64,000 nt of DNA from contig JBKAGP010000001.1 in NCBI GenBank assembly GCA_046290465.1, positions 2,656,001 to 2,720,000 on the forward strand, read 5' to 3'. The translations under genes were made by a program, and so were the position numbers. The DNA is from Planctomycetota bacterium. Its GTDB lineage: Bacteria > Planctomycetota > UBA1135 > UBA2386. Positions within the stretch are counted from its first letter, which is position 1, and each line of letters opens with the position of its first letter. This document shows, one piece after another, positions 47,469 through 58,948 of the stretch. Under the pieces are notes generated by a model. It was given only the letters and a program-made list of their open reading frames with translations. It had not been told where the DNA came from and searched no databases.

Positions 47469-48281
47469 TCAGCGCTGCCGGAACAGCAGCGCCGACAGGT
47501 CGTCCGGCTTGCCGACGACGCGGCGGTCGGCCTGGGCCATGCGCTGCGAAGCGAGCGCGAGCAGGCGCTCCGCCGCGGCCGGCAGCGGCCCCTTGCGCAC
47601 CACCTCGACGACCTCGTCGACGGTCAGGTTGTCCCACAGCCCGTCGCTGGCCAGCACCACGGTGTCGAACGGCGCCAGCCGGATGGCGCTCGCCACCTCG
47701 ACGCGCATGCCCGCCATGCCGACGCAGTTGGACAGCAGGTGCCGGTCCTCGTGGCGCAGGCCGGCGCCGGCGTCGAGCATGCCGGACTCGACCGCGTAGC
47801 CGACCGGCGAATGGCTGACGGTGCGGTGCTTGACGCGACCGCGCTGGCCGACGACCAGCAGCTCGGAGTCGCCCGCGTGGCAGGTGCGCAGTTCGCCGCC
47901 CGCGACGATCGCGCACAGCACCGTGGTCGCGCTGCCGCCGCCGTCCTGCAGCAGACCCTGGTTGGTGTCCTCGATCGCCGCCATCGTCGCCGCGCGCAGC
48001 GCGCCGCCGTCGGGCGCGGCCTCGCTCCAGGCGGCCGACACGGCCTGCACGACCCTGCCGGCGGCCACGTGGCCGCGCGGCGCGCCGCCGACGCCGTCGG
48101 CGACCACCAGCGCGGTCGCCGTCGGCGACGACCAGACCGCCGCGGCGTCCTCGCACGGCTCGTCGCCGGTGCGCGTCGGCGAGCGCTGCAGCACCAGCAC
48201 GGCGCGCCCACCGGGCAGCTCGACCTGCTCGAGCGCCGGCGCGTCGGCCGCCAGCCAGCGCTTGCACGCAGCGGCGCTCAC
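47469..48281 (-). CDS. PP2C-family Ser/Thr phosphatase
   Basis: CEDA, VADGVGG, ATT, HAGDSE, LASDGLWD, DDLS. GTG 48281 overlaps the kinase stop. Confidence 0.88.
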   Translation of the reverse strand: MSAAACKRWLAADAPALEQVELPGGRAVLVLQRSPTRTGDEPCEDAAAVWSSPTATALVVADGVGGAPRGHVAAGRVVQAVSAAWSEAAPDGGALRAATMAAIEDTNQGLLQDGGGSATTVLCAIVAGGELRTCHAGDSELLVVGQRGRVKHRTVSHSPVGYAVESGMLDAGAGLRHEDRHLLSNCVGMAGMRVEVASAIRLAPFDTVVLASDGLWDNLTVDEVVEVVRKGPLPAAAERLLALASQRMAQADRRVVGKPDDLSALLFRQR

Positions 48282-49075
48282 GCCCGCCTCCCGTTGCGCA
48301 GCCGGCGGTCCAGCTGGCGACGCGCCTCGTCGAACGCACGCAGCATCTGCCCGGCGTCGCGGTAGCGCTTGCGCGCCTCGGGCTCGAGCGCGCGCTGCAG
48401 CACCGGCAGGAATTCGCGGGCGCGCCGACGGATCTTGTCGCGGCCGACCAGCGGCCAGCGATACGGCCATTCGGGCAGCACCCCGGCCAGCAGGCGGTAG
48501 ACGATCAAGCCCGCCGAGAACACGTCCGAACGCGCGCTGGGCCGCCCCATCGCCTGTTCGGGCGCCACGTAGCCGACCGTTCCGGACGACGAGGCCTGCA
48601 GGGTCCGCACCGAGTTCTTGGCCAGCCCGAAGTCGCCGAGCTGCGCGGTGCCGTCCTCGAACAGGATGACGTTGTCGGGCTTGACGTCGCAGTGGATGAC
48701 GCGGCGTTCGTGCGCGTAGGCCAGCGCCGCCAGCAGCTGCCGGCCGTAGCTGAGCGCGTTGTCGAGCGACATCCGGTACGACAGCCGTTCCTGCAGCGAG
48801 CGCTGCCCCATCGGGTAGGCCAGCGTCAGCCGGCCGTCGAGCATGTCCGCGTTCTTGAGGCGCAGCACGTTGGGGTGGTCGAGGCTGGCGCTGATGCGGA
48901 TCTCACGCTCGAAGTCGGCGCGAACGTCCGCGTCGAGCCGTTCGGCGAGCGGGACCTTCAGCGCGACGGTCAGCCGCTCGAGCGTGTCGTACGCCTCGAA
49001 CACATCGGCGAAGCCGCCGCGCGCCAGGCGGCGGCGAAGCTTGTACTTTCCGAGCCTGCCGCCCACACGCAACAT
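48278..49075 (-). CDS. Stand-alone cytoplasmic Hanks-type Ser/Thr kinase
   Basis: GGFADV, VALK, HCDVKPDN, DFGLA, GTVGYVAPEQ, SDVF. Confidence 0.92.
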   Translation of the reverse strand: MLRVGGRLGKYKLRRRLARGGFADVFEAYDTLERLTVALKVPLAERLDADVRADFEREIRISASLDHPNVLRLKNADMLDGRLTLAYPMGQRSLQERLSYRMSLDNALSYGRQLLAALAYAHERRVIHCDVKPDNVILFEDGTAQLGDFGLAKNSVRTLQASSSGTVGYVAPEQAMGRPSARSDVFSAGLIVYRLLAGVLPEWPYRWPLVGRDKIRRRAREFLPVLQRALEPEARKRYRDAGQMLRAFDEARRQLDRRLRNGRRA

Positions 49076-58500: not shown

Positions 58501-58948
58501 CCGCAAGGAACTGATCATCCCGAACAAGGAGTTCATCACCGGCAGCGTGGTCAACTGGACGCTGTCGGACGCGGTCACGCGGCTGATCATCCGCGTCGGC
58601 GTGGCCTACGGCTCCGACACCGAAGCGACGCGCCGCATCCTGCTCGAGATCGCCGCCGACACGCCCGGCATCCTGGCGACGCCGAAGCCGAAGGCGCTGT
58701 TCCTGGCGTTCGGCGACAGCACGCTGAACTTCGAGCTGCGCGTGTTCACGGCCGACACCGACGTCTGGCCCGAGGCGATCGACCGGCTCAACCGGGAGAT
58801 CGACCGTCGCTTCCGCGACGCCAAGATCGAGATCGCGTTCCCGCAGCGGGACCTGCACATCCGTTCGGCGAAGCCGATCGTCGAGGCGCTGATGCAGCAG
58901 CGGCCGTCCCCCGCCGACCGGTCAGACGACGCGGAACCGGCGAAGTAG
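55577..58948 (+). CDS. MscK/KefA-like large mechanosensitive channel
   Basis: Signal peptide, long coiled-coil periplasmic region, multiple TMs, [38 protein letters not shown]. Confidence 0.93.
   Translation: [1123 protein letters not shown]

Follow-up and report, generated by a model that had tools for sequence, protein, structure and literature searches.

The locus examined here raises the question of which genes in a tightly packed cluster belong to one functional unit, and what such a unit could make. It lies in a 64,000-nucleotide stretch (hereafter the window) of the 6.6 Mb genome of a Planctomycetota bacterium, contig JBKAGP010000001.1, positions 2,656,001 to 2,720,000, and is made up of six minus-strand genes facing a divergent pair on the plus strand. 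An earlier note on this DNA had read all eight as parts of one regulated system. The gene set and its spacings are borne out by open reading frame (ORF) coordinates and by Pfam and NCBIfam domains. All eight ORFs are present, with GC content at third codon positions of the coding type (0.92-0.97), and matches above cut-off were obtained for Dala_Dala_lig_C, G_glu_transpept, FGase, Pkinase, PP2C_2, Sigma54_activat and MscS_TM/MS_channel. Junctions among the six minus-strand genes are three 4-bp overlaps, one 1-bp gap and one 36-bp gap.

Comparison with homologous loci shows that the conserved unit consists of three of these genes, all on the minus strand. The first (51847..54009) encodes a 720-aa protein in which a Ddl-like ATP-grasp ligase (residues ~1-330) is fused to a metal-less M20 domain resembling carboxypeptidase G2 (CPG2; residues ~345-720). 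The second (50300..51850; Pfam 382 bits) encodes a 516-aa leaderless Ntn hydrolase of the gamma-glutamyltranspeptidase (GGT) family, with nucleophile T336 and an altered acyl-donor pocket. The third (49554..50303; Pfam FGase 146 bits) encodes a 249-aa amidohydrolase of the FGase family.

Conservation and distribution of the three-gene unit

A search across 185,579 species genomes brought up at least 405 stretches coding for a ligase relative. Two genome scans, from which 80 of 128 and 80 of 405 matches were kept, yielded 149 loci, and more distant relatives contributed another 80 in a third scan. Of the resulting 229, 115 carry the fused ligase with at least 4 kb of flanking sequence. The compared loci, comprising ligase homologues and some further loci, are labelled L001 and onwards. 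GGT and FGase genes accompany the fused ligase in 85 of the 115 loci, a class I GATase-like gene is present instead in 20, and neither arrangement occurs in 10. When at least 5 kb is available on both sides (91 loci), GGT is found in 83 and FGase in 80, followed by MscK-like channels (22) and ZntB-like transporters (18), while activator-like genes (11), kinase (5), PP2C (5) and the Lys-rich gene (3) are rarer. FGase genes were counted by tblastn (116); simple gene-caller clusters gave 63. The co-occurrence that the earlier note proposed to score is thus extensive for GGT and FGase and recurrent for MscS-type channels, but limited to particular lineages for the activator, kinase and PP2C.

The ligase and GGT span 15 labelled taxon groups and extend to ANME archaea. 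The sample is uneven, as 38 of the 149 loci are from Acidimicrobiia. The order ligase-GGT-FGase prevails in most phyla, and GGT-ligase-FGase is the order in Bacillota. The closest named homologues come mostly from metagenome-assembled genomes (MAGs) of Planctomycetota (67-84% identity), and record titles often indicate marine, sponge, lucinid-symbiont or soda-lake sources. Two ligase copies flank a single GGT in L070. One MAG holds two paralogous ligases (L052 and L081): the activator/MscK set accompanies one of them, GGT and FGase the other.

Among relatives of the host, the ligase is present in 6 of 14 genomes of the same genus and in 0 of 26 others. Close orthologues of the kinase and of the MscK-like channel were each detected in 4 of the 14 genomes, all of them ligase-positive; outside the genus, the kinase is also present in three ligase-negative genomes of other genera, and the channel likewise occurs without the ligase. 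Gain or loss of the locus as a block fits these data; several of the compared genomes are incomplete. We found no description of the ligase, GGT and FGase trio in the literature; related operons may be included in the amidoligase survey of Iyer et al. 2009, which lay outside that search.

Active sites of the ligase and its partner hydrolases

The ligase has the ATP-grasp fold with ATP/Mg and oxyanion residues of the Ddl type, and residues K115, K152, E189, K230, R272, D274, E287 and N289 are conserved in 120-122 of 122 homologues. In the donor domain, the motif YGIQGxxRYTH and E24 are conserved in the family (122 homologues). Database records name these proteins "D-alanine-D-alanine ligase". 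The window ligase scores below the Ddl cut-offs (TIGR01205, 175 vs 245.65; PRK01372, 193 vs 243), while another host gene, in L150, reaches 239 against a TIGR01205 cut-off of 246 and is the better Ddl candidate. The D-Ala-site motifs HG..GED and omega-loop K-Y are replaced, the aligned positions reading YGIQGEAR and DKT, and the omega-loop Tyr is lost, with T, K or R at position 231 among homologues. In addition, no mur or hut genes were seen among the 46 window ORFs scanned with Pfam. The suggestion that this is not the cell-wall Ddl therefore holds. Membership in the RimK type is not indicated either (Pfam 19 bits, below cut-off), no retropepsin gene is present in the unit, and TIGR03103 is not among the 25 best NCBIfam matches listed for the ligase. 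A third, unfused Ddl-like ATP-grasp gene of the host is found at L151:5959-7011.

The C-terminal domain escapes Pfam detection. It matches CPG2 in a phmmer search (E 0.0013) and, as a predicted fold, in Foldseek, where CPG2 is the best match (E 1.3e-23, TM 0.76-0.77 by target); ESM Atlas places it in M20 clusters at 0.96. Out of five M20 dimetal ligands (His, Asp, Glu, Glu, His), H425 is kept and S454, G488, R512 and F692 occupy the other columns, the first four columns being taken from the phmmer alignment and the fifth placed by motif spacing. Two or fewer ligand columns are kept in 121 of 122 homologues. The HxD motif, general-base Glu and lid Arg of CPG2 are retained; R633 is conserved in 115 of 122 homologues, and E487 in most. 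The pseudo-M20 assignment of the earlier note is in agreement with this pattern of a catalytic and lid fold with four of five metal-ligand columns replaced. Retention of R633 and E487 suggests that the domain may bind a carboxylate without catalysis.

The GGT-like enzyme scores 345 against the TIGR00066 cut-off of 358 and, as judged by eye, starts without a signal peptide. The Ntn nucleophile Thr and the autoprocessing motif are present, and processing is predicted from them. T336, E356, Y375, G419 and S420 are invariant in 121 homologues, and W397 is kept in 119 of the 121. Where solved GGTs have a donor pocket of Arg, Asn/Glu, Gln/Glu, Asp and Ser-Ser, the positions here read S80, E356, Y375, A378, A398 and S399; two of the six match a solved GGT, and the Arg, the Gln/Glu, the Asp and one Ser are replaced. 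We take these positions to be those that bind the L-gamma-glutamyl group. The enzyme is atypical, as had been proposed. E356 was considered as a novel change and rejected, since Bacillus GGT has Glu there.

Two further GGT-like subtypes were noticed in the host genome. The subtype with NDY (L247:2351-5417) stands behind a CN-hydrolase gene, and members of this subtype are inserted in or beside the trio in L089, L012, L143 and L144. The other (NGY/RSNAAPT; L246:2773-6532, at ~3.764 Mb) resembles KamA-linked GGTs; behind it come an RloB-like 7TM gene and a weakly agmatine-deiminase-like gene, with no adjoining ligase.

In the FGase-like enzyme, H11, D36 and R59 are conserved in 107 of 108 homologues, and H126 and E201 in all 108. 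Its score with the HutG model TIGR02017 is 72.5, far below the cut-off of 278.75, the urocanase gene is 0.77 Mb away, and no hut gene is present in the window, in line with the view that histidine catabolism is not involved. No match of this protein to the PDB was found. A second FGase-family gene of the host lies in one run with RLAN/RimK-like ATP-grasp and GCS2 ligase genes (L153:2334-5757, ~2.068-2.072 Mb); FGase-family proteins thus accompany ligases more than once in this genome.

An exchange of partners bears on the nature of the substrate. In 31 loci, the ligase is adjoined by a gene for a class I GATase-like protein of 190-200 aa, and GGT is found in none of them. Two unrelated glutamyl-amide-cleaving folds stand in for each other. 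The GATase-like triad C80/H169/E171 is invariant in 28 of 28 sequences, and the closest relative is the free-standing GMP synthase subunit A (E 9e-32). Compared with it, Gln after the nucleophile is changed to Glu and SHKDE to KHRFH, so that an amino-binding acid is lost, as in GGT. The acids lost in both enzymes presumably hold the alpha-amino group of L-glutamine or of the gamma-glutamyl group. As both alternative hydrolases have lost them, the simplest reading is that the substrate would be a glutamine-like amide with a moved (beta) or blocked amino group. In a quick tree, whose very long outgroup branches make the root unusable, GATase loci form a clade of Bacteroidota/Fusobacteriota, and a second group of them, apart from the first, is intermingled with trio loci among those of Thiodiazotropha/Thiomargarita. 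Identity of the GATase with C26 gamma-glutamyl hydrolase was also considered and is not borne out: GMP synthase subunit A gives the best solved matches, and plant gamma-glutamyl peptidase 1 ranks lower.

A proposed glutamyl-amide cycle and its rivals

Genes for osmotic and Mg2+ homeostasis recur around the ligase. In the window these are a 1123-aa MscK/MscM-like mechanosensitive channel (55577..58948, plus strand; MscK 590 bits vs cut-off 991) and, beyond the range covered by the earlier note, a CorA/ZntB-like transporter (58922..59830, minus strand; CorA 191 bits), the sole CorA-type match in the host genome. Genes of MscS type are found in 33 of the 115 fused-ligase loci, which agrees with the channel association noticed before, CorA type in 23 and MgtE in 10 (any of these in 49); the whole host genome has 4 MscS-type, 1 CorA and 2 MgtE sites. 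CorA, GNAT/CN-hydrolase, GATase, MscS and ligase genes form one run in L217, and RimK/AstE/RimB, GNAT-CN-hydrolase, diadenylate cyclase and ectB genes recur near the ligase in a few loci. Blocked glutamine amides, beta-glutamate and beta-glutamine are described as solutes in passages of PMC1224877 and PMC7824335, the two beta compounds as osmolytes in the former, and PMC12239564 describes action of RloB/RloC in hypo-osmotic stress in P. aeruginosa. We regard the osmotic neighbours as context, not proof.

Some other neighbours were recorded as well. Two host genes coding for GNAT::carbon-nitrogen-hydrolase fusions adjoin MgtE in one case and BON-MscS in the other (L248:6466-9882 and L249:5346-8762), and such fusions turn up repeatedly close to ligase genes of Planctomycetota, Verrucomicrobiota and Bacteroidota. 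Polyamine genes adjoin the ligase in three phyla (L107, L109, L112, L211, L221, L223-L225, L229), including those for arginine decarboxylase, saccharopine-dehydrogenase-like, decarboxylase, arginase-family and deoxyhypusine-synthase-like proteins.

A possible source of a non-standard acid is a KamA-type aminomutase. Unfused sister ligases (41-49% identical) have a KamA-like gene among their neighbours in 19 of the 80 third-scan loci, counted at >50% to one reference, and also GGT-like and RloB-like 7TM genes; in one protein, P0158, ligase and KamA are fused. KamA-type proteins are encoded in 38 of 50 ligase genomes, 27 of the long and 11 of the short type. All eight ligase-positive Gammaproteobacteria have the long type, compared with 9 in a sample of 100. 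Arg occupies the column of lysine 2,3-aminomutase Asp293 in 19 of 20 fetched copies, and a basic residue there is, we assume, a mark of glutamate 2,3-aminomutase. The host itself has a long KamA-type gene with this Arg (L245:2627-4042, ~6.163 Mb), a candidate glutamate 2,3-aminomutase located between dnaX-like and ybaB/recR-like genes, as named from sequence starts. Among unfused sister ligases, those of Rhizobia in L174, L175, L179, L181, L182, L186, L189, L190, L192 and L193 have neither KamA nor GGT nearby, and the complete KamA-GGT-7TM-ligase set is found for others, in Bradyrhizobium.

Taken together, we propose that the trio serves osmotic and Mg2+ homeostasis by making and breaking a small glutamyl amide of a non-standard kind (beta-glutamyl or N-blocked), and assign this reading a probability of about 45%, roughly half of which belongs to the beta-glutamyl version. 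At the expense of ATP, the ligase would couple a glutamate-type acid that is not the standard one with an amine, which is probably an amino acid; the acid donor would most likely be beta-glutamate supplied by a KamA-type aminomutase, or otherwise N-blocked glutamate. The product would be a small cytoplasmic amide with a part in this homeostasis. The retained Arg of the metal-less M20 domain may serve to bind product or substrate, and the domain may regulate or scaffold the ligase. The GGT-like enzyme would cut the side-chain amide and the FGase-like enzyme strip the remaining acyl group, so that the solute is recycled, both being replaced in some lineages by the class I GATase-like enzyme. On down-shock, MscS-type channels would let the solute out. 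In the planctomycete lineage, the trio would reside in an island gained or lost as a whole and brought under a sigma54 promoter and a divergent activator. The make/break/release idea of the earlier note fits this gene context. A more elaborate version appears doubtful. In it, marine and soda-lake bacteria and some archaea would share a widespread and hitherto undescribed osmolyte cycle based on a beta-glutamyl amide and centred on the trio, with KamA supply, a pseudo-peptidase as product sensor, a neutral amide or peptide as product, and two independently retuned hydrolase solutions.

Several observations weigh against the proposed cycle. The loci are not independent, given the share of Acidimicrobiia, and habitat confounds all co-occurrence counts. 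No MscS, CorA or MgtE gene is in range in 66 of the 115 loci. A KamA gene was found in 0 of 149 fused-ligase loci, so that its placement inside these loci was rejected, and 12 of the 50 ligase genomes, including closed Acidimicrobiales chromosomes and cultured isolates, gave no KamA-type match. Nor does KamA track the ligase within the host genus, where it is present in 13 of 14 genomes vs 6 of 14 for the ligase; the eight ligase-positive Gammaproteobacteria are related to each other. At a pocket position occupied by Arg in KamA-linked GGTs, the GGT of the trio carries Trp, so the donors of the two may differ. Finally, PMC1224877 contains statements that early NMR evidence in a methanogen opposes an aminomutase route to beta-glutamate and that pools of beta-amino acids turn over little.

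Among other explanations is reversible peptide tagging, already offered in the earlier note, or oligo-anion synthesis, of the RimK/RimB or RloABC kind. Here acidic residues would be attached by the ligase to a protein, an envelope acceptor or a growing oligomer, and trimmed by the hydrolases; we consider this unlikely, and a weaker rival of the make/break reading. RimK, AstE-like and RimB-like genes adjoin in L012, L023, L090 and L146, related ligase domains are fused to or stand beside RloB-like 7TM domains, the osmotic role of RloB/RloC would suit it (PMC12239564), and the M20 domain is closest to glutamate carboxypeptidase and the poly(Asp) hydrolase PahZ2. However, RloB-like genes are beside only 1 of the 115 fused loci, the ligase is of Ddl and not RimK type (19 bits, as above), and conservation of a gene that could encode the target or carrier was not seen. 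GGT- and GATase-type enzymes, moreover, usually act on small amides. Use of the GATase or GGT-like enzyme as an ammonia donor, by which the ligase would form a primary amide such as beta-glutamine and FGase would be a separate deacylase, seems rather improbable. The kinship of the GATase with free-standing GMP synthase subunit A, its intact triad and its position next to the ligase speak for such an amidotransferase, but the glutamine-binding positions are altered in GATase and GGT alike, the Ddl acceptor-carboxylate region (R272, S299) is kept in the ligase and suits an amino-acid acceptor, and the FGase that follows GGT is left unexplained.

We attach similarly low probability to a role in catabolism or salvage, where an imported amine or osmolyte would be shielded by acylation at the cost of ATP until two hydrolases free it (a Puu-like logic), or to repair of a damaged glutamyl metabolite. 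Frequent records from sponge-associated Acidimicrobiia and Alphaproteobacteria, some without KamA, are compatible with it, as are the polyamine genes of several loci and sigma54 control, which suits substrate-induced catabolism; yet the recurrent neighbours are channels and Mg2+ transporters, and the trio has no conserved companion of the oxidase, transaminase or substrate-transporter kind. An ordinary D-Ala-D-Ala ligase beside a histidine-catabolic HutG is already largely refuted and highly improbable. The database names and the Ddl-like fold and ATP site suggest it, against which stand the TIGR01205 score of 175 vs 246 with another gene scoring 239, the replaced HG..GED and omega-loop Tyr positions, the distance of 0.77 Mb to urocanase, and occurrence of the gene in just 6 of 14 same-genus genomes and none of the 26 others.

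The name D-Ala-D-Ala ligase in database records conceals a mis-annotated pathway, carried by bacteria of marine sediments, symbionts of sponges and lucinids, Bacillota of soda lakes and ANME archaea. Should its product be a solute, the marine pools of osmolytes and nitrogen would gain a new compound, and functions could be given to the pseudo-M20 domain and to new subfamilies of GGT and GATase. The pathway is directly testable, since some hosts are in culture (Desulfoluna, Thiohalocapsa halophila, Alkalicoccus, Draconibacterium and Propionigenium).

Lineage-limited genes, the surrounding window and known systems

The ligase gene is preceded by the sigma54 -24/-12 element TGGCAC-N5-TTGC (54058..54072, minus strand), which ends ~48 bp before its ATG. 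The exact match claimed in the earlier note is confirmed and is the only one in 64 kb (0.09 expected); at least one match arose in 9 of 100 shuffles, and taken alone it represents modest evidence. The relaxed pattern GGCAC-N5-TTGC, picked after inspecting these same upstream sequences, precedes the ligase by no more than 150 bp in 7 of 146 homologous loci vs 0 of 1752 control windows, and five of the seven are close relatives with the activator (L001, L002, L003, L004 and L052). A stricter sigma54 expression matched upstream of the ligase in 2 of 142 loci vs 4 of 852 controls. Sigma54 control of the unit is therefore likely here, judging by the promoter sequence, but not general across the family. 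Sigma70 promoters sought in the window did not exceed chance.

The divergent gene (54126..55580, plus strand; Sigma54_activat 231 bits) encodes a 484-aa sigma54 activator with a Fis HTH and the intact GAFTGA motif that had been reported. Its ATG is 53 bp from the -24 element, a start position conserved in three relatives. The N-terminal 145 aa, which have no Pfam match even at E<=1, are a degenerate receiver-like domain. A search for an activator-binding site near the promoter returned chance-level repeats only. Activator-like genes occur in 16 of 149 loci, and merely 5 of these are close (63-79% identical).

Downstream of the trio is a gene for a 146-aa Lys-rich protein (26% K; 49112..49552, minus strand), with a probable signal peptide judged by eye. 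No Pfam, NCBIfam or usable ESM Atlas match was found, and no family or fold is assigned. It is present in 5 of 149 loci, all close relatives, a count taken from the 149-locus survey because low-complexity masking hid Lys-rich matches among the 229. In L002, L003 and L052, MscK comes after this gene in the direction of the ligase, not after the activator. The 36-bp gap that separates the Lys-rich gene from the kinase holds a 7-bp all-GC hairpin (49092..49108) with a T-tail on the plus strand only; this site included, terminator-like sites in the window number 3 vs 4.4 expected, which is not above chance.

The last two minus-strand genes code for a 265-aa stand-alone Ser/Thr kinase (48278..49075; Pkinase 121 bits), with DFG and APE present and HCD in place of HRD, and a 270-aa PP2C/PPM phosphatase (47469..48281; PP2C_2 57 bits). 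The host genome has 78 kinase-like and 26 activator-like sites. The kinase-PP2C pair is found with the ligase in 6 of 149 loci, and its arrangement takes four forms. L002 and L004 have it upstream of the promoter, with the sigma54 element between PP2C and the ligase, and the pair is thus outside the sigma54 unit there. On these counts and arrangements we reject a single conserved system of eight genes; the activator, kinase/phosphatase and Lys-rich genes are lineage add-ons to the conserved trio, the regulatory ones among them being ordinary.

Elsewhere in the window, a LOG-family gene (46557-47456) is convergent with PP2C and a secreted papain-like C1 peptidase gene (59839-61236) is upstream of the ZntB-like gene; neither recurs near the ligase. 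An ECF sigma factor gene is divergent from a kinase-TPR gene (40232-43668), a pair common in planctomycetes. A small P-loop protein (43760-44665) looks by eye like 2-phosphoglycerate kinase, with weak AAA matches only. The remaining features noted are UDP-sugar genes (906-5718), two POT peptide transporters in tandem (11143-14874), an MBOAT/AlgX pair (21559-24175), a hydantoinase/oxoprolinase A gene (25905-27869), and two di-haem oxidoreductase genes in tandem (32133-34666).

The individual enzymes can be set beside their characterised relatives. With Ddl (PF07478) the ligase shares the ATP-grasp fold and the ATP, metal and oxyanion residues, and differs in its YGIQGxxRYTH donor motif, lost omega-loop Tyr, permanent pseudo-M20 fusion, sub-cut-off scores, lack of mur context and patchy distribution. 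CPG2 (M20) is the closest solved fold to the C-terminal domain, its metal ligands being replaced here. The GGT-like enzyme has in common with the GGTs of E. coli, B. licheniformis and H. pylori the fold and the Ntn nucleophile Thr, but has no signal peptide, and Arg, Glu, Asp and Ser of the donor pocket are replaced. The FGase-like enzyme keeps the metal/catalytic His-Asp-His-Glu set of HutG, while falling far below the HutG cut-off and lying outside a hut cluster.

Regarding whole systems, the NAGGN osmolyte trio consists of an amidotransferase, a GNAT/ATP-grasp protein and an M42 peptidase. It shares with the window set the three-gene make/break logic for a glutamine-type peptide osmolyte; the window set differs in the ligase branch and the hydrolases and has no GNAT. 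RimK/RimB and RloA/RloB/RloC of Pseudomonas have in common with it an ATP-grasp ligase with a peptidase and a link to osmotic stress, and RimK/RimB and RloB-like genes recur near this ligase family. In the passages of PMC12239564 that describe them, the ligases are of RimK type, the proteases are retropepsins and the substrates are proteins or the envelope, with no GGT, FGase or pseudo-M20. As far as its sequences allow it to be placed, the trio resembles known ligase-plus-peptidase modules in its working and is a member of none of those tested.

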